IMG/VR virus record: IMGVR_UViG_3300032243_000848
Span: 1-26,030 of that record
Source: a virus
Lineage: Duplodnaviria > Caudoviricetes
DNA length: 26,030 nucleotides
Strand: one strand, 5' to 3'
In this document: positions 2,066 through 7,267 of the stretch, piece by piece
How the letters are laid out: every line of letters begins with the position of its first letter
Position numbering within the stretch: the stretch's first letter is position 1
Notes under the pieces: generated by a model
Database searches by the model: none
What the model was told of the DNA's origin: nothing
What the model saw: only the letters and a program-made list of their open reading frames with translations
Program-made: the position numbers and the translations under genes

Positions 2066-2140
2066 TGGCGTCCCGTCAGGGAGTCGAACCCCGGCCCTCA
2101 GTTTTGGAGACTGATGTGCTACCGTAACACTTACAAGACT
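2066..2140 (-). tRNA. tRNA-Trp(CCA)
   Basis: TCAGT-CTCCAAA-ACTGA anticodon arm, GGTTCGACT T-loop, 3' CCA. Confidence 0.9.
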
Positions 2141-2144
2141 TGTT

Positions 2145-2235
2145 TGGCGGAGGGCTAGAGAGTCGAACTCTAAAGGCGCTATTAACACTCGGCGGTTTTC
2201 AAGACCGTTACCGTCACCAGTCGGTTTGGCCCTCC
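2145..2235 (-). tRNA. tRNA-Ser(TGA)
   Basis: CGGT-CTTGAAA-ACCG, long variable arm, GGAGGGC/GCCCTCC acceptor, GCCA end. Confidence 0.93.
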
Positions 2236-2244
2236 GTGTAATTA

Positions 2245-2320
2245 TGGAGCGGGATATCAGGTTCGAACTGACGACCTAGTGCTTGGCAAGCACTCGCTCT
2301 ACCAACTGAGCTAATCCCGC
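2245..2320 (-). tRNA. tRNA-Gly(GCC)
   Basis: AGTGC-TTGCCAA-GCACT, GCGGGAT acceptor, TCCA end. Confidence 0.95.
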
Positions 2321-2326
2321 AATGTG

Positions 2327-2402
2327 TGGTGCCCACTGACGGGTTCGAACCGCCGACCTACTGATTACAAATCAGTTGCGCTACCAGCTGTGCCAAGTGG
2401 GC
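2327..2402 (-). tRNA. tRNA-Thr(TGT)
   Basis: ACTGA-TTTGTAA-TCAGT, GCCCACT/AGTGGGC, ACCA end. Confidence 0.95.
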
Positions 2403-2454
2403 TTTTTAAGTTAAATATTTATGTAGTAACAAACTACACTCAATAAATACCAAT

Positions 2455-2967
2455 ATGTACAAATTAGAATTCATTTGGATCAATACTAAAGAAAATAAAT
2501 TCTTTGAAGAATCTGATGCTTACGACAAAAATAAAGCTATTGAATTTTTCAAGTATTATCTAGTAAAACATAATCTCGCAACGACAACAATAGATCCAAT
2601 GGATTTCCCCCACGAAATTCATTTCAATCAGTTACCGGACGGATCGTGGACAAAAGTTGCAAGAGTATTTGGTTTTCATTCTCCTGAGCACGTGGAAGAA
2701 TATTACCTAGATGCAGCCAAAGAAGGATTATTTGGATATCCCGAAATTAAACGTCAATGGCAACAGGAACACGATATTGCAGCGGAAGTAAATATTTTAG
2801 ATGCTAAAGATAACATAGTAAAGTTATTAAGCAGTTGTCACGGAAACATTTGTGTCAAGTATGGATCTTGCGATTCTAATCTAGGTTGTAATATTAAAAC
2901 TAATTTGCCTAGATATAATGCAAAATCACAATTTCCTATATTCCACATTAAAGAATATAAAGTTTAA
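2455..2967 (+). CDS. Hypothetical protein with C-terminal Cys cluster, antisense within tRNA array
   Basis: 170-aa ORF; AATAAATA late box at 2442-2449, 5 nt before ATG; CHGNICVKYGSCDSNLGC. Confidence 0.75.
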   Translation: MYKLEFIWINTKENKFFEESDAYDKNKAIEFFKYYLVKHNLATTTIDPMDFPHEIHFNQLPDGSWTKVARVFGFHSPEHVEEYYLDAAKEGLFGYPEIKRQWQQEHDIAAEVNILDAKDNIVKLLSSCHGNICVKYGSCDSNLGCNIKTNLPRYNAKSQFPIFHIKEYKV

Positions 2968-2968
2968 T

Positions 2969-3058
2969 TGGCGGAGCGACTGGGAGTCGAACCCAGTCAC
3001 CGACTTTCATCGGTGTACGGATTAGCAATCCGCTGCCTTACCGTTCGGCCACCGCTCC
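2969..3058 (-). tRNA. tRNA-Ser(GCT)
   Basis: GCGGA-TTGCTAA-TCCGT, long variable arm, GCCA end. Confidence 0.95.
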
Positions 3059-3060
3059 TA

Positions 3061-3217
3061 TTATTGAAAAGTGTTCAAGTGCCAATTTATGCGTCCGGGG
3101 CTTCCGTGCAATAGCGTATGGCTAGTTATGTCAGGACCTGTCCCACGCCAGTTAGGCCCGCATAGTCGACACGTCTGTCAACGATACCTGATTTTCATCT
3201 TAAACACTTATCAATAA
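3061..3217 (-). ncRNA. Putative structured RNA closed by a 15-bp stem
   Basis: Inverted repeat 3061-3075/3203-3217 (14/15); internal stems GTTGACA/TGTCGAC, TATGCG/CGCATA, GGGCCT/AGGTCC. Confidence 0.55.
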
Positions 3218-3221
3218 CAGC

Positions 3222-3445
3222 AGATGCTCTGCGAACCCCGGTGGTAATTATACCGCATCAGAAATTTGGTCAGCAAGTTTGCACTTACCAATTAGTCTTT
3301 CATCACGCACGGCCTCCACCCACTTCCCGACGGGTTCCGTTCTCGTATTGCCAACGCTGTTTAAGGCTTGAACAGTACCGCCCGTGTGTGTCATCACACT
3401 TCTCATCCTCTGGGACCAGAGTATCCAGTGACGCTGGAACGTTCT
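3222..3445 (-). ncRNA. Putative ~220-nt multibranch RNA with k-turn (box C/D-like) motif
   Basis: Closing helix GATACTCTG/CAGAGCATC, GCAA tetraloop hairpins, GTGATGA...CTGA pair; GC-rich and starts directly after the tRNA-Asp CCA. Confidence 0.6.
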
Positions 3446-3521
3446 TGGCGCCCTGTAGGGGTTTCGATCCCCTTACCTCGACAGTGACAGTGTCGCGCTC
3501 TCCCAATTGAGCTAACAGAGC
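3446..3521 (-). tRNA. tRNA-Asp(GTC)
   Basis: CGACA-CTGTCAC-TGTCG; GCCA end; T-loop ATCGAAA. Confidence 0.9.
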
Positions 3522-3527
3522 AATATA

Positions 3528-3613
3528 TGGTGGAGATGGATGGATTCGAACCACCGCGCTTTTTAGGGGACAGATTTACAGTCTGTTGCAATCAACCACT
3601 CTGCCACATCTCC
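3528..3613 (-). tRNA. tRNA-Tyr(GTA)
   Basis: ACAGA-CTGTAAA-TCTGT, long variable region, ACCA end. Confidence 0.95.
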
Positions 3614-3618
3614 ATATA

Positions 3619-3694
3619 TGGTACTCCGTGGGGGAATCGAACCCCTCCTTACCGACGTGAAAGGCCGGTGTCCTAACCGATAGACGAACGGAGC
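3619..3694 (-). tRNA. tRNA-Glu(TTC)
   Basis: CCGGC-CTTTCAC-GTCGG, GCTCCGT/ACGGAGT, ACCA end. Confidence 0.93.
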
Positions 3695-3698
3695 AAAA

Positions 3699-3954
3699 CT
3701 ATATTAAAACTAACTAAGGGAACTCAAACACGATCACACCGTTGGTGTCTCCACAGGAACGTCTCCTGCTTCAGTGTTGTCATCATTACTGCCTGACTGC
3801 CCGTCACATTCAACTGCACAGCCCGAGCTGTCGTCCATATGCTTCTTGTACTACTAGCAGAGCCAACCCGTCAGTTGGTAATCCTCTCTAGCAGCTACCT
3901 AACGGATCAGGTAACCCCAAATAAGTTTTAATATAGCAACCCTTGCGGGTTACC
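3699..3954 (-). ncRNA. Putative structured RNA: GCAA hairpin plus perfect 13-bp closing stem
   Basis: CTATATTAAAACT 3699-3711 / AGTTTTAATATAG 3924-3936; preceded by GGTAACCC-GCAA-GGGTTG; many internal hairpins. Confidence 0.55.
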
Positions 3955-3974
3955 ATAAACTCACTTTCTTAACT

Positions 3975-3986
3975 TTTTAAAGAACA
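3975..3986 (-). promoter_or_regulatory. rrn-type boxA antitermination element
   Basis: TGTTCTTTAAAA (rrn boxA consensus TGCTCTTTAACA), just downstream of tandem promoters and upstream of tRNA/ncRNA genes. Confidence 0.65.
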
Positions 3987-4011
3987 GTTATTAATTGCTT
4001 AACTTGTTTCT

Positions 4012-4040
4012 ATTATAGCAAACAATTGATTTATTGTCTA
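4012..4040 (-). promoter_or_regulatory. sigma70 promoter (P2-like)
   Basis: TAGACA-17 nt-TATAAT with TGn extended -10. Confidence 0.75.
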
Positions 4041-4097
4041 CCGTTTTTTGTAACTTTACAAAATTTAAAACAGGTCAATTTCTTAACGTATGCCTAG

Positions 4098-4126
4098 ATT
4101 ATACAACCATTTCGAATAGTTGTCAA
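4098..4126 (-). promoter_or_regulatory. sigma70 promoter (P1-like)
   Basis: Perfect TTGACA-17 nt-TATAAT. Confidence 0.8.
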
Positions 4127-4199
4127 TGACCCTTTACACTGTAGGGTTATATTAATATCTAATACCTTGGTTTGCAAAAAAGTGCTCTATAAATACCTT

Positions 4200-5171
4200 A
4201 TGCAAACTGAAATACTAGACTACAGGTATACAACAACCTGGGAGTTAGAAAAGTTACTAGCGGATTCATCATTCAACAATAACTTAGAAAATAATTGGCC
4301 ACTGGTTACAACAACTTTTTCGGGTCTAGTGACCAACGATGACGAAATTGTATGGCGCGATTTTATTGGGGGCAAACGCAGGGGCAAGCCAAGTGAATTA
4401 CGTAATAGTACTATTCATAGTACACTAAGTTATGCCGGAGATCAATTGGGTTCTAGTCGTCAAGTGCTGAACGTTCACGCGGCTTGCGCTAGTTCGTTGT
4501 ATGCACTTTACACCGCTAGTCTAATGAGTCAAGACTTAAATTGTCCTGTAGTTGTTTTTTGCGCCGACAATTTAAAAACCAATTACCATCTATGGCATTT
4601 CAAAAGTTTTGGCGCACTGGATCAAGAAACAGGTCGTCCGTTTGATTCAACATCAAAAGGATTTAAAATGGGCATTGGTGCTGCTGTTTATTTGATCAAA
4701 CATCCTAGCGTTAAGCATACTATGCCAGCCAAGGCATTTGTGCAAAACTACAGTTTCTACACAAACCCTGCATTGGTGGCCAATCCCGGATCAGCACAAG
4801 ATATCGTCAACAACATTACAGGCATCAATTACAAGGCCATTGATTTTTGGAATGCTCACGCTACAGGAACTCCTGTGGGCGATGCGGTTGAACACGATTA
4901 CTTTGCCAAAACGATTACACAAGACATTCCCATTGTCAGCTACAAAGGCTACATAGGACATTGTATGAGTGCCGCCGGTGCAATTGAAATTGCTATGGCC
5001 TTGGACGGCAAGCGCGACAACCTACTGTTAGCAAACAAACTGGAAGGCAATATAATTGTCAATGACAGCAGGATCATTACCCAACCAACCAGCTTTGCAT
5101 ACAAGAAGATGTTGAAGACCAGTTTGGGCTTTGGTGGAAAAACTGCTGTTGCAGAAATTGACCTATATTAA
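4200..5171 (+). CDS. Beta-ketoacyl synthase (FabB/FabF-like ketosynthase)
   Basis: Cys-His-His triad contexts HAACASS, NAHATGTPVGD, KGYIGHCMSAAG, and C-terminal SLGFGG. Start placed at ATG 4200, 4 nt after TATAAATA (4188-4195), rather than 4167. Confidence 0.9.
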   Translation: MQTEILDYRYTTTWELEKLLADSSFNNNLENNWPLVTTTFSGLVTNDDEIVWRDFIGGKRRGKPSELRNSTIHSTLSYAGDQLGSSRQVLNVHAACASSLYALYTASLMSQDLNCPVVVFCADNLKTNYHLWHFKSFGALDQETGRPFDSTSKGFKMGIGAAVYLIKHPSVKHTMPAKAFVQNYSFYTNPALVANPGSAQDIVNNITGINYKAIDFWNAHATGTPVGDAVEHDYFAKTITQDIPIVSYKGYIGHCMSAAGAIEIAMALDGKRDNLLLANKLEGNIIVNDSRIITQPTSFAYKKMLKTSLGFGGKTAVAEIDLY

Positions 5172-5249
5172 TGGAGTAGGTGGTCAGATTTGAACTGACG
5201 GTTTTACGGATTTGCAATCCGTTCCCTTGGACCACTCGGGCACACCTAC
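5172..5249 (-). tRNA. tRNA-Cys(GCA)
   Basis: ACGGA-TTGCAAA-TCCGT; TCCA end. Confidence 0.93.
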
Positions 5250-5258
5250 ATAATCAAT

Positions 5259-5334
5259 TGGTGGAGGATACAGGGATCGAACCTGCGACCTATTGCTTGC
5301 AAAGCAACCGCTCTCCCAACTGAGCTAATCCCCC
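5259..5334 (-). tRNA. tRNA-Ala(TGC)
   Basis: GTTGC-TTTGCAA-GCAAT; G3:U70; ACCA end. Confidence 0.95.
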
Positions 5335-5344
5335 AAATTATTTT

Positions 5345-5421
5345 TGGTCGGAGTACAAGGATTCGAACCTTGGACCTCCTGGTCCCAAACCAGGCGCACT
5401 ACCAGGCTGTGCTATACTCCG
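5345..5421 (-). tRNA. tRNA-Pro(TGG)
   Basis: CCTGG-TTTGGGA-CCAGG; CGGAGTA acceptor. Confidence 0.95.
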
Positions 5422-5424
5422 AAT

Positions 5425-5500
5425 TGGTAGGACCTGCCAGGCTCGAACTGACGACATTCTGCGTGTAGGGCAGACGCTCTACCAACTGAGCTAAGGTCCT
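5425..5500 (-). tRNA. tRNA-Val(TAC), C33 variant
   Basis: TCTGC-CCTACAC-GCAGA; AGGACCT/AGGTCCT; ACCA end. Confidence 0.9.
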
Positions 5501-5504
5501 AAAT

Positions 5505-5579
5505 TGGTTGCGGGGGAAGGAATCGAACCTCCGGCTTCCAGGTTATGAGCCTGGCGGTCTACCGCTGACGTACCCCGCG
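5505..5579 (-). tRNA. tRNA-fMet(CAT), initiator type
   Basis: CGCGGGG start with C1:A72 mismatch; CCAGG-CTCATAA-CCTGG. Confidence 0.9.
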
Positions 5580-5581
5580 AT

Positions 5582-5653
5582 AATTTTGAAAGCATACACT
5601 TTTCACAAACAGAGCCTGTCTTATCAGCAGGGTACGTATACACTTACAAAATT
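5582..5653 (-). ncRNA. Small stem-closed RNA element
   Basis: ~18-bp stem 5582-5599/5636-5653 (G-U pairs on the minus strand) enclosing CCTG-CTGATAAGA-CAGG. Confidence 0.45.
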
Positions 5654-5789
5654 ATCTAAACAATCGTCTAACAATCCATTTTAACCAGAAATACTTGACA
5701 GGTCTAACCGGCCAAATATCAAAATTAAATAAAGGCAACTCTTTAGGTATGTTACCATATGCTTTTTCAATTACTTCTATGGGCTTCAT
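5652..5789 (-). CDS. Small hypothetical protein (45 aa)
   Basis: MKPIEVIEKAYGNIPKELPLFNFDIWPVRPVKYFWLKWIVRRLFR; AAGGA SD upstream; below ORF-track cutoff. Confidence 0.6.
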   Translation of the reverse strand: MKPIEVIEKAYGNIPKELPLFNFDIWPVRPVKYFWLKWIVRRLFR

Positions 5790-5806
5790 ATCTTGTCCTT
5801 TATATT

Positions 5807-5880
5807 TGGAGCGGGATATCGGAATCGAACCGATGACACTAACTTGGAAGGATAGAGTTTTACCATTAAACTAATCCCGC
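5807..5880 (-). tRNA. tRNA-Gly(TCC)
   Basis: CTATC-CTTCCAA-GTTAG (one U-U mismatch); GCGGGAT acceptor; TCCA end. Confidence 0.9.
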
Positions 5881-5890
5881 TTACTGACTA

Positions 5891-5975
5891 TGGTGGGCAA
5901 GGAGAGACTCGAACTCTCACGCCTTTCGGCGCTGGAACCTAAATCCAGTGCGGCTACCAATTACGCCACTTGCCC
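5891..5975 (-). tRNA. tRNA-Leu(TAG)
   Basis: CTGGA-TTTAGGT-TCCAG; long arm CGCC-GAAA-GGCG. Confidence 0.95.
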
Positions 5976-6001
5976 TATTTTTCTATCTTATATCTTTAGT
6001 A

Positions 6002-6077
6002 TGGCTCCCCGAGGTGGGTTCGAACCACCGACCTGCGGATTAACAGTCCGTCGCTCTACCGACTGAGCTATCAGGGA
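6002..6077 (-). tRNA. tRNA-Asn(GTT)
   Basis: ACGGA-CTGTTAA-TCCGC; GCCA end. Confidence 0.95.
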
Positions 6078-6082
6078 ATAAT

Positions 6083-6298
6083 TTATTTAACTTTTTTCAA
6101 ATACTCGCGACCAATAAAGCCTGCTTCGATTTCTTCCAATGCCGCAACTACAGGAGTACTGCTAGTAATAACCTTAGGTCTTGCTCCCTTTCGAATTTCG
6201 CGAACACGTTGACTGGCAATTAGTACTAGATCAAATCTGTTACCGCCTGCATTTTCAACGCATTTGTCTGTATCGTTCATTACTCGAATATTTTTCAT
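6083..6298 (-). CDS. rpoZ: RNA polymerase omega subunit homolog (phage-encoded)
   Basis: NRFDLVLIASQRVREIRKG...P.V...PVVAALEEIEAG omega signature; AAGG SD. Confidence 0.9.
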   Translation of the reverse strand: MKNIRVMNDTDKCVENAGGNRFDLVLIASQRVREIRKGARPKVITSSTPVVAALEEIEAGFIGREYLKKVK

Positions 6299-6316: not shown

Positions 6317-6345
6317 ATTATACTGTATATTTTAATTGTTGTCAA
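6317..6345 (-). promoter_or_regulatory. sigma70 promoter for rpoZ and downstream tRNAs
   Basis: Perfect TTGACA(6340-6345)-17 nt-TATAAT(6317-6322). Confidence 0.8.
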
Positions 6346-6346
6346 C

Positions 6347-6446
6347 GGTATTCAAAAACACACCGGTACTCGTCGATCCGGTCAGTGGATCCGCGTCAGA
6401 ACCTTTGTTCCCGCCGCTTTTTTCATCTGGTGTGTTTTTGAATACC
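6347..6446 (-). ncRNA. Putative structured RNA with perfect 18-bp closing stem
   Basis: GGTATTCAAAAACACACC 6347-6364 / 6429-6446; internal GATCC/GGATC and GGAAC/GTTCT hairpins. Confidence 0.55.
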
Positions 6447-6596
6447 CTGTGTTGCCACAGGATATGACGGGGTCAGTACCCCGACCAGTCATTTATACTT
6501 GTGTGTTCTCTCCACACGTTCATCCGACTGTCCGCCCATTTGCTAGTTATTTGAGTGTCTAGCGTGGATCTCGTTTCCACTTTTTAACACTATATC
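6446..6596 (-). ncRNA. Putative multibranch structured RNA
   Basis: Hairpins GTGGA/TCCAC, GCTAG/CTAGC, GTGTG/CACAC, GGGGT/ACCCC and CCTGTG-GCAA-CACAGG; no ORF. Confidence 0.5.
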
Positions 6597-6734
6597 TCAA
6601 GTGCGAAGTTCTTTTTTAGCAAGTCCTTTTTGAACTGCCATTTGCTTCTGAACACGTTCGACTTTTTGCCTAATCAACTTGTCAAGTTGTTCTGCGGTCA
6701 ATGTGTGCTCAGTAGTCCATTTGATTTCGCGCAT
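6597..6734 (-). CDS. Small basic hypothetical protein (~45 aa)
   Basis: The track start (TTG 6779) lies in the terminator U-tract; in-frame ATG 6734 gives MREIKWTTEHTL...; weak SD. Confidence 0.4.
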   Translation of the reverse strand: MREIKWTTEHTLTAEQLDKLIRQKVERVQKQMAVQKGLAKKELRT

Positions 6735-6771
6735 TTTTTTATTAATATCTGCTTTCAAATTTTTATCCTTT

Positions 6772-6807
6772 AAAAACAAAAAACCCTAGGGGTTTAATCC
6801 TAGGGTC
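6772..6807 (-). terminator. Intrinsic terminator of the attenuator
   Basis: ACCCTAGG-ATTAAACC-CCTAGGGT followed by TTTTTGTTTTT. Confidence 0.85.
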
Positions 6808-6858
6808 CTTGGAGTTTGCGAATAAGTTATTAAGTTATTCTTGTCCCTCCTGGACCCT
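6802..6858 (-). promoter_or_regulatory. Antiterminator hairpin mutually exclusive with the terminator
   Basis: AGGGTCC-A-GGAG (6847-6858) pairs with CTCC-AA-GGACCCT (6802-6814), which includes the terminator 5' arm. Confidence 0.75.
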
Positions 6859-6975
6859 GGTACCCTCTAACGGTGTGCGATCGTTTTTTAGACTAATTAC
6901 AGACCAATAGGTGGGCGCGAAGCCTGCCTGTTTGGCCAAACAATTAATTAAATGTGACGATCCGATTTTTTTCAT
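6835..6975 (-). CDS. Putative attenuator leader peptide containing all 20 amino acids
   Basis: MKKIGSSHLINCLAKQAGFAPTYWSVISLKNDRTPLEGTRVQEGQE*, 46 codons; starts ~2-3 nt after the predicted TSS; last codons overlap the antiterminator 5' strand. Confidence 0.75.
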   Translation of the reverse strand: MKKIGSSHLINCLAKQAGFAPTYWSVISLKNDRTPLEGTRVQEGQE

Positions 6976-6983
6976 ATGTGTCT

Positions 6984-7012
6984 ATTGTAGTTTATTTATG
7001 CTTTGTTGTCAA
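6984..7012 (-). promoter_or_regulatory. sigma70 promoter with embedded late box
   Basis: TTGACA(7007-7012)-17 nt-TACAAT(6984-6989); CATAAATA at 6993-7000. Confidence 0.8.
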
Positions 7013-7056
7013 CAACTTTTGGTAAGATCAAAATATTTGTACTTTTGTTTTAAACT

Positions 7057-7194: not shown

Positions 7195-7229
7195 GAGTCG
7201 CCTGCTCTGACCAACTGAGCTATCAGCGC
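7195..7229 (-). pseudogene. 5' half of a tRNA (Ile2/Met CAT-like), truncated in the anticodon loop
   Basis: GCGCTGA-TA-GCTC-AGTTGGTCA-GAGC-A-GGCGA-CTC then unrelated sequence; no T-arm or CCA. Confidence 0.6.
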
Positions 7230-7238
7230 AATGTATCT

Positions 7239-7267
7239 AGTATAGTGTATTGTTTAATTGTTGTCAA
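7239..7267 (-). promoter_or_regulatory. sigma70 promoter
   Basis: TTGACA-17 nt-TATACT immediately upstream of the half-tRNA. Confidence 0.7.

Follow-up and report, generated by a model that had tools for sequence, protein, structure and literature searches.

What does a 46-codon open reading frame (ORF) that uses every amino acid do between a promoter and an intrinsic terminator in front of a phage tRNA array? The window, by which we mean the whole 26,030-nucleotide stretch analysed here, is an entire 26-kb virus contig whose genes include a T4-like terminase, a single-strand binding protein, UvsX and UvsY. Among cultured phages its terminase is nearest to those of the Pseudomonas jumbo phages PA5oct, MIJ3 and Paride (56%), Sinorhizobium phage Phosso (53%) and Agrobacterium phage Atu_ph07 (51%). 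Within the leader region itself (6340-7020), blastn against cultured phages returned short chance matches only, and a metagenome scan found no near-identical copies. RNA sequencing runs contained 5-6% of the words of the window, as contigs, with tRNAs and terminators of relatives seen; one DNA contig, at a depth of only 4.6, carries four listed base changes within the leader. The reading that we favour, and consider likely on the sequence evidence set out below, is a ribosome-coupled transcription attenuator of the phage tRNA array with a leader ORF that lists the amino acids that the array serves.

Leader, terminator and cargo in the window copy

The leader unit lies on the minus strand. A predicted sigma70-type promoter (TTGACA-17-TACAAT, 7012-6984, 11/12 consensus) stands ahead of it, and the eight bases between its -10 box and the ATG at 6975 make a start 1-3 nt before the ATG a fair estimate, giving a nearly leaderless transcript. 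The promoter spacer holds an ATAAATA box (6993..6999), present also before the terminase and other genes of the window, which resembles what we take to be the T4 late promoter consensus. The leader ORF (6835..6975) contains all 20 amino acids and 37 distinct codons. Its codons 40-43 (6847..6858) form the 5' strand of an antiterminator whose 3' strand (6802..6814) overlaps the 5' arm of the terminator, 6858-6852 pairing with 6808-6802 and 6850-6847 with 6814-6811. The resulting interrupted helix of 7 plus 4 pairs is worth -21.6 kcal/mol (z -5.15), and in the window copy no hairpin competes for the antiterminator strand. The intrinsic terminator (6772..6810) joins a stem (6810-6779, -17 kcal/mol, z -3.68) to a U tract. 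The original prediction had claimed this promoter, a start just before the ORF, a hand count of 20 amino acids and 37 codons, the complementarity of codons 40-43 to the terminator arm and a strong terminator, and each was reproduced. A hairpin inside the ORF in the MFE fold (6878..6962) might conceivably act as an RNA polymerase pause element; across 119 leaders the mean folding z against synonymous recoding is -1.18.

Behind the terminator on the same strand stands a small ORF of about 53 residues (6597..6779), an optional first cargo conserved in relatives that had been overlooked initially. Its likely start is the in-frame TTG at 6758, with an AAGGA ribosome-binding site ahead. The ORF (50-60 residues, two predicted helices) is found in 72/118 loci and has 1056 homologues, with no Pfam domain among the 120 matches listed; the ORF itself gave no Pfam, Atlas or Foldseek fold match and a borderline PHROG of no assigned function. 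It is followed by a conserved structured RNA (6514..6600) with two hairpins that covary among relatives (87 cells changed on both sides versus 26.5 when shuffled, 0/500) and a predicted pseudoknot whose pairs are conserved without covariation. This RNA has no Rfam match, and by eye its topology fits none of the hammerhead, pistol, twister or HDV-like ribozymes. The motif is estimated to occur in about 630 stretches of the viral collection, at the heads of tRNA arrays. A search of four cultured relatives with its model gave no convincing match (best E 0.14), and the RNA is absent from Phosso and Atu_ph07. At a few loci (L181, L224) the RNA stands behind a plain promoter and the attenuator is absent. 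The rest of the non-coding block (6347..6513) holds further hairpins, variable among relatives (z -6.06 and -3.26), and ends in an 18-bp stem.

A separate promoter beyond this block, also part of the original prediction, is real (6345-6317, 12/12 consensus) and would bypass the attenuator in the window copy. It precedes a homologue of rpoZ (RNA polymerase omega; 6083..6298, PF01192, E 4e-13, with omega chains in PDB) and the tRNA array (2066..6077), which has 16 genes for 14 amino acids within the contig. Two further promoters are called within the array (4126-4098 and 4040-4012), and a strong one lies upstream of the leader (7267-7239), with no terminator called between it and 7012. The promoters at 6345, 4126 and 4040, together with that at 7267, would limit the switch in the window copy to extra output, and here the attenuator is therefore probably a booster and not the sole gate.

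Several neighbouring elements of the same strand deserve mention. Under the 7267-7239 promoter lies an extra tRNA (7140-7060, TAA anticodon) that matches Rfam and was missed by ARAGORN, next to the 5' half of a broken tRNA gene (7195-7230) that ends near the anticodon. Just after the 4126 and 4040 promoters, which head a second block of tRNAs, is a boxA-like antitermination motif at about 3974-3985, assigned on what we take to be the boxA consensus. The non-coding blocks 3700-3950 and 3060-3440 between tRNA genes look structured and have no convincing Rfam match, and a degenerate tRNA-like stretch at about 1960-2050 follows tRNA-Trp with no ARAGORN or Rfam call. On the opposite strand a beta-ketoacyl synthase-like gene (4167-5171) sits inside the array.

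Conservation and amino-acid content of the leaders

A search with the antiterminator and terminator motif returned 59 loci, of which the 44 with a U tract were kept and examined together with the window. Left out of the amino-acid analysis of 45 leaders less than 70% identical were L115 (unrelated terminator), L024 (10-codon pick) and nine loci that lack upstream DNA; the ORF of L151 was re-picked by stop distance. Loci were then collected by the downstream RNA motif, without selection on the leader. In the discovery set (111 viral loci, 25 of them too short) a terminator and an ORF of 25-62 codons were found in 81 of the 86 loci with enough DNA, four others lacking a terminator by our rule and one having a 22-codon ORF. 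The held-out set (193 viral loci, 24 too short) yielded 162 of 169, the other seven being without terminator. Leaders are some 30 to 60 codons long, and their stop codons, searched for at 19-45 nt, lie 21-39 nt ahead of the terminator arm. A promoter match of at least 10/12 lies within 150 nt upstream in 99/108 relatives, 51 of these 6-11 nt before the ATG (counts for which no null was computed), and an ATAAATA box within 110 nt upstream in 73/108 leaders versus 5/108 control stretches. In 12/108 relatives a tRNA-Met(CAT) stands just upstream of the leader, outside the switch.

Beyond the terminator the order is conserved as optional small ORF, structured RNA and tRNAs, with the first tRNA a median of 431 nt on and a median of 20.5 tRNAs in loci with at least 9 kb downstream. 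The earlier inclusion of rpoZ in the cargo does not generalise: it lies close behind the leader only in the window copy, and in the 22 other loci of 119 with a homologue within 10 kb this is 2.8-9.8 kb downstream or, once, upstream. A scan of bacterial genomes (185,579 species) gave 17 motif matches. Six have the full layout, all in metagenome bins, and five of these, on contigs below 9 kb, are probably binned phage DNA; the remaining 11 have no terminator and look like chance. The element is real and conserved, and its design turns up in hundreds of contigs of related jumbo phages.

Two of four cultured relatives carry the layout at the head of their main tRNA array, in both cases with the leader ORF annotated as a hypothetical protein; Paride and Vibrio phage 2.275.O have no leader-terminator before their arrays. 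In Phosso (L509, 419754-419990; leader PV764938.1 419754-419918) the leader has 54 codons and 19 amino acids, lacking Cys, and its stop is 32 nt before the arm; the leader-arm duplex (-20.2) is reached by 19/1000 recodings. No Cys tRNA is called in roughly 50 kb after this leader, and promoter-like sites follow its terminator. In Atu_ph07 (L510, 339246-339050) the leader has 42 codons and 18 amino acids and stops 34 nt before the arm, and its duplex (-19.3) is reached by 6/1000 recodings. This phage fits the matching of leader to cargo described below poorly, since its leader lacks Leu though tRNA-Leu follows, and has Asn and Thr; it is reported to be without tRNAs for Asn and Thr. The likeness of both leaders to the window leader is one of layout. 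The Phosso array also contains an ARAGORN tRNA with a CUA, amber-reading, anticodon (L516, about 11731), and no tRNA-Tyr was called in the stretches examined.

Length-matched windows from the proteins of this phage contain the full set of 20 amino acids in 1.9% of cases, and random sense-codon strings with the leaders' base composition in 2.8%; a 2-3% chance in one ORF of about 45 codons would not be compelling by itself. The family is a different matter. Among leaders less than 70% identical, all 20 are present in 31/61 of the discovery set, 30/57 of the held-out set and 21/45 of the first set, which was partly selected on the antiterminator; discovery, held-out and window leaders pooled give 62/119. 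Family composition predicts 3.2-4.3%, and other reading frames give 0-4/45. Permutation within alignment columns, which keeps positional conservation, yields 3.4/45 against the 21/45 observed (0/2000 reach it), so different lineages complete the amino-acid set at different positions. In the same 69 loci the full amino-acid set occurs only once in the longer ORF beyond the terminator, versus 40 times in the leaders. Every amino acid is under-dispersed, with mean counts of one to five. Comparison of 45 disjoint close pairs shows change in 39/507 cases for amino acids present as a sole copy versus 401/2594 for repeated copies, with an odds ratio of 0.55 when stratified by amino acid (given without a P value, and reversed for Tyr and Val). 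The expectation that related phages would hold a conserved ORF of variable sequence and retained diversity is thus borne out above the nulls, and the diversity is, on this comparative evidence, under selection.

The original prediction had also stressed the spread of synonymous codons. This holds more strongly for the family (32.3 distinct codons per leader versus 30.3 expected synonymously, 0/300) and is modest in the window copy (37 versus 33.2 expected from window codon usage, P=0.045); with the last 10 codons removed, the excess over a uniform null is matched in 50/300. U-ending codons are avoided in four-codon boxes (0.14 in leaders versus 0.34 in flanking genes) and favoured in two-codon boxes (0.78 versus 0.64), a bias that might serve to enrich codons decoded by a single tRNA or through wobble. 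The window leader has used 19 amino acids by codon 33 and meets its first Glu at codon 37. An apparent front-loading of new amino acids fades across the family once the final 12-14 codons are removed (118 and 991 of 2000), and in 27/62 leaders Glu occurs only in the last 10 codons, as does Asp in 21/62.

What a leader omits is related to what follows it. In loci with at least 12 downstream tRNAs, and with flanks cut at 10 kb, an amino acid is absent from the leader in 7/1045 cases when its tRNA lies downstream, in 15/48 when it lies upstream only and in 25/199 when none is seen. Pooled, 40 of the 47 missing amino acids have no downstream tRNA, against 11.4 when leaders are swapped and 19.1 when amino acids are redrawn within loci (both 0/20000); the discovery set gives 13/16 (swap null 3.2) and the held-out set 27/31 (8.8). 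Relatedness was handled by keeping a single locus from each single-linkage cluster (37, 29 or 18 clusters), and the largest p is then 0.006. The clearest locus, L424, has 39 tRNAs with none for Cys, Glu, Ser and Tyr, and its leader lacks exactly these four. The link is one-way: in 207/247 cells that have no downstream tRNA the leader contains the amino acid all the same. In the discovery set it is weak at 18 tRNAs or more (4/7; redraw null reached in 1236/20000). Locus-specific matching of exact codons to anticodons was not seen (1028/5000), and matching within split codon boxes is significant at 12 or more tRNAs (41 and 4 of 5000) and not at 18 or more (1110 and 1031 of 5000). The match was assessed across relatives, the window contig ending with tRNAs for 14 amino acids. 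For the proposal that the leader senses the whole tRNA pool, the diversity of the leader is upheld and the target refined: leaders drop amino acids whose tRNA is not downstream, and 'all 20' appears to follow from arrays that serve nearly all amino acids.

Ribosome position and the fold switch

In the discovery set the duplex between a leader end and its own arm averages -17.0 kcal/mol versus -12.0 for swapped loci (0/10000), and in the held-out set -15.6 versus -11.7; in 62/62 loci it is stronger than in synonymous recodings. When 55 of 62 loci were anchored on a G run, the second and third following positions exchanged C-G and U-A pairs in 38/55, against 22-23 expected (0/10000), and the first and fourth positions gave no significant covariation. 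Covariation of the antiterminator pairs in relatives, which had been suggested as a check, is thus found at two positions, alongside duplexes that beat swapped loci.

In the folding model the free 3' region forms the antiterminator in 42/62 loci, and with a ribosome masking the stop the terminator forms in 58/62. For the window copy the modelled terminator probability is 1.0 when a ribosome occupies the last codons, close to 0 when it sits at codon 35 or nearer the start, and 0.0 if the leader is untranslated, the fold switching at about codon 36-37. The Glu codon 37 falls on this boundary, with a terminator probability of 0.0-0.06 or 0.77-1.0 depending on the assumed ribosome edge; a stall at Glu or Asp in the last 10 codons may go unsensed. 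In the two cultured phages a ribosome exactly at the stop gives weaker modelled termination (0.25 in Phosso, 0.6 in Atu_ph07). Folded whole and free of ribosomes, the leader favours the terminator in 28/62 loci, which means that some copies are not switched by the equilibrium model. The trp/his-type geometry claimed at the outset finds support in its mutually exclusive folds, covariation and fixed stop distance; by masking in silico, ribosome position would select the fold in the window copy and most relatives, against which stand the 28 loci that terminate ribosome-free.

These observations are consistent with the following model. RNA polymerase would start just before the ATG, with a ribosome following on the leader. 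When tRNA supply is good the ribosome would reach the last ten or so codons during synthesis of the terminator and block the antiterminator strand, allowing the terminator to form and transcription to end near 6775. Were the ribosome instead detained upstream of this zone by a scarce tRNA, or absent altogether, the antiterminator would be free to form and would permit read-through into the structured RNA and tRNA genes, presumably yielding more tRNA. We infer that the ORF is translated during infection and that delay at one or two hungry codons lasts long enough to flip the switch. The supply of tRNA would thereby feed back negatively on the transcription of tRNA genes.

Alternative readings and comparison with known systems

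A more ambitious form of this attenuator is possible, though we hold it only tentatively. The leader would be an evolving inventory of its own tRNA array, read at single-codon resolution, and loss of any tRNA, including by cleavage from host anticodon nucleases, would switch on replacements, so that the locus would serve as an inducible RNA-only counter-defence as well as a feedback loop.

A simpler gauge could also be imagined, one that answers to the overall speed or initiation of translation (free ribosomes, antibiotics, host shut-off or infection stage) with an amino-acid mix that is that of an average message and does not resolve single tRNAs. One to three codons per amino acid would suit such a device, as would modelled read-through of the untranslated window copy (terminator probability 0.0), the leaderless look of about half of the leaders and the late-promoter-like box, which suggests timing control; whiB7 likewise answers general translation stress (10.1101/2023.06.02.543512). 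It leaves unexplained, however, why leaders lose exactly the amino acids whose tRNA is absent or upstream (7/1045 versus 15/48) and why sole copies are protected. We judge it unlikely as a full account, and it is compatible with the favoured attenuator as a second input.

The product of the locus may alternatively be the peptide, as a ligand-sensing arrest peptide, or the terminated leader RNA of about 200 nt, acting in trans like rnTrpL, with the terminator mainly ending the unit. The ORF is indeed constrained (pN/pS 0.37, a rough value from 45 close pairs) and one Trp is nearly invariant (44/45 leaders), and in S. meliloti RNAs and peptides derived from attenuators are reported to work in trans. 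However, a length of about 30 to 60 codons with the last Trp 3-41 codons from the stop is unlike a fixed arrest motif, the leader has no Pfam or PHROG family, and neither product explains a covarying antiterminator or a composition that tracks tRNA genes, which makes this reading improbable. That a small gene and an ordinary terminator are here by accident, the tRNAs having their own promoters as in the window and in the 24/103 relatives where the stretch from terminator to first tRNA contains one matching at least 11/12, is least probable of all, given that the other 79/103 have none and that the nulls for diversity, covariation and matching were all exceeded, and again in held-out loci.

If the ribosome-coupled attenuator is correct, it bears on why large phages carry tRNA genes, long debated in terms of codon bias, host tRNA loss and defence nucleases. 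Input codons that follow the cargo imply tRNAs made on demand, and the conditions that flip the switch would show what the tRNAs are for. Leader-peptide attenuation would reach beyond amino-acid enzymes to include tRNA genes, and beyond bacteria to include phages. The two cultured phages that share the layout, one of them growing on non-pathogenic Sinorhizobium meliloti, make the attenuator experimentally accessible, and a 200-base translation gauge covering all amino acids would be a useful reporter part.

The classical trp, his and ilv attenuators share with the phage leader the exclusive antiterminator and terminator set by ribosome position, as modelled for the phage, and regulatory codons that match the operon product. 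They differ in that their codon runs serve just one to three amino acids, that they form a 1:2 pause hairpin and that biosynthetic enzymes are their cargo, where the phage leader has maximally varied codons and tRNA cargo; with no such runs in the leaders, a classical trp/his/leu/thr attenuator can be set aside. T-box riboswitches, too, control a terminator in response to tRNA status, but do so by direct binding of uncharged tRNA, usually of one species, and have no translated leader. No T-box or other Rfam cis-regulator matched in the window (E up to 1) or in 16 related loci (E up to 0.5). Arrest peptides of the TnaC or SpeFL type keep conserved residues at a constant spacing from where the ribosome stalls, whereas here C-termini are variable and the last Trp wanders, and this class was rejected. 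In theory (PMC1183508), attenuation is sharp when regulatory codons are numerous and a pause site is present. The phage leaders have one to three codons for each amino acid and no more than a possible pause element, which counts against such sharpness. The Anabaena trn operon, a long mobile tRNA array, is also induced by impaired translation, but it is controlled at initiation by the repressor TrcR, unlike the phage attenuator (PMC8421152; PMC10272220), and the terms 'attenuat' and 'leader' are absent from the main text of PMC8421152.

No report of leader-peptide attenuation of tRNA genes or phage tRNA arrays was among the papers listed from the full-text literature searched, which covers few subscription journals; the consulted part of PMC2965389 gives no phage or tRNA-gene case, and 'attenuat' is absent from PMC6102473, PMC11242549 and PMC7824862. 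The original suggestion that sensing many amino acids at once was undescribed nevertheless overstates its novelty, as the M. smegmatis whiB7 uORF, which has every amino acid but Cys (19), already senses by the same logic, with weaker induction by Trp starvation once its only Trp is removed (bioRxiv 10.1101/2023.06.02.543512). The mechanism is therefore known, and what is new relative to the literature searched is the tRNA cargo, the viral setting and the tracking of tRNAs by the leader. The phage leader is not itself a whiB7/wblC family member, having no whiB7 downstream and instead the small ORF, structured RNA, rpoZ and tRNAs. Compared by mechanism and not by sequence, both have a uORF of mixed composition; a stall there leads, or in the phage would lead, to an antiterminator and read-through, and composition sets, or in the phage would set, the starvation that is sensed (shown for Trp and His in whiB7). 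The whiB7/wblC system is chromosomal and controls a transcription factor, whereas the phage leader, of 30-60 codons, precedes tRNA genes and has a composition that follows its cargo.
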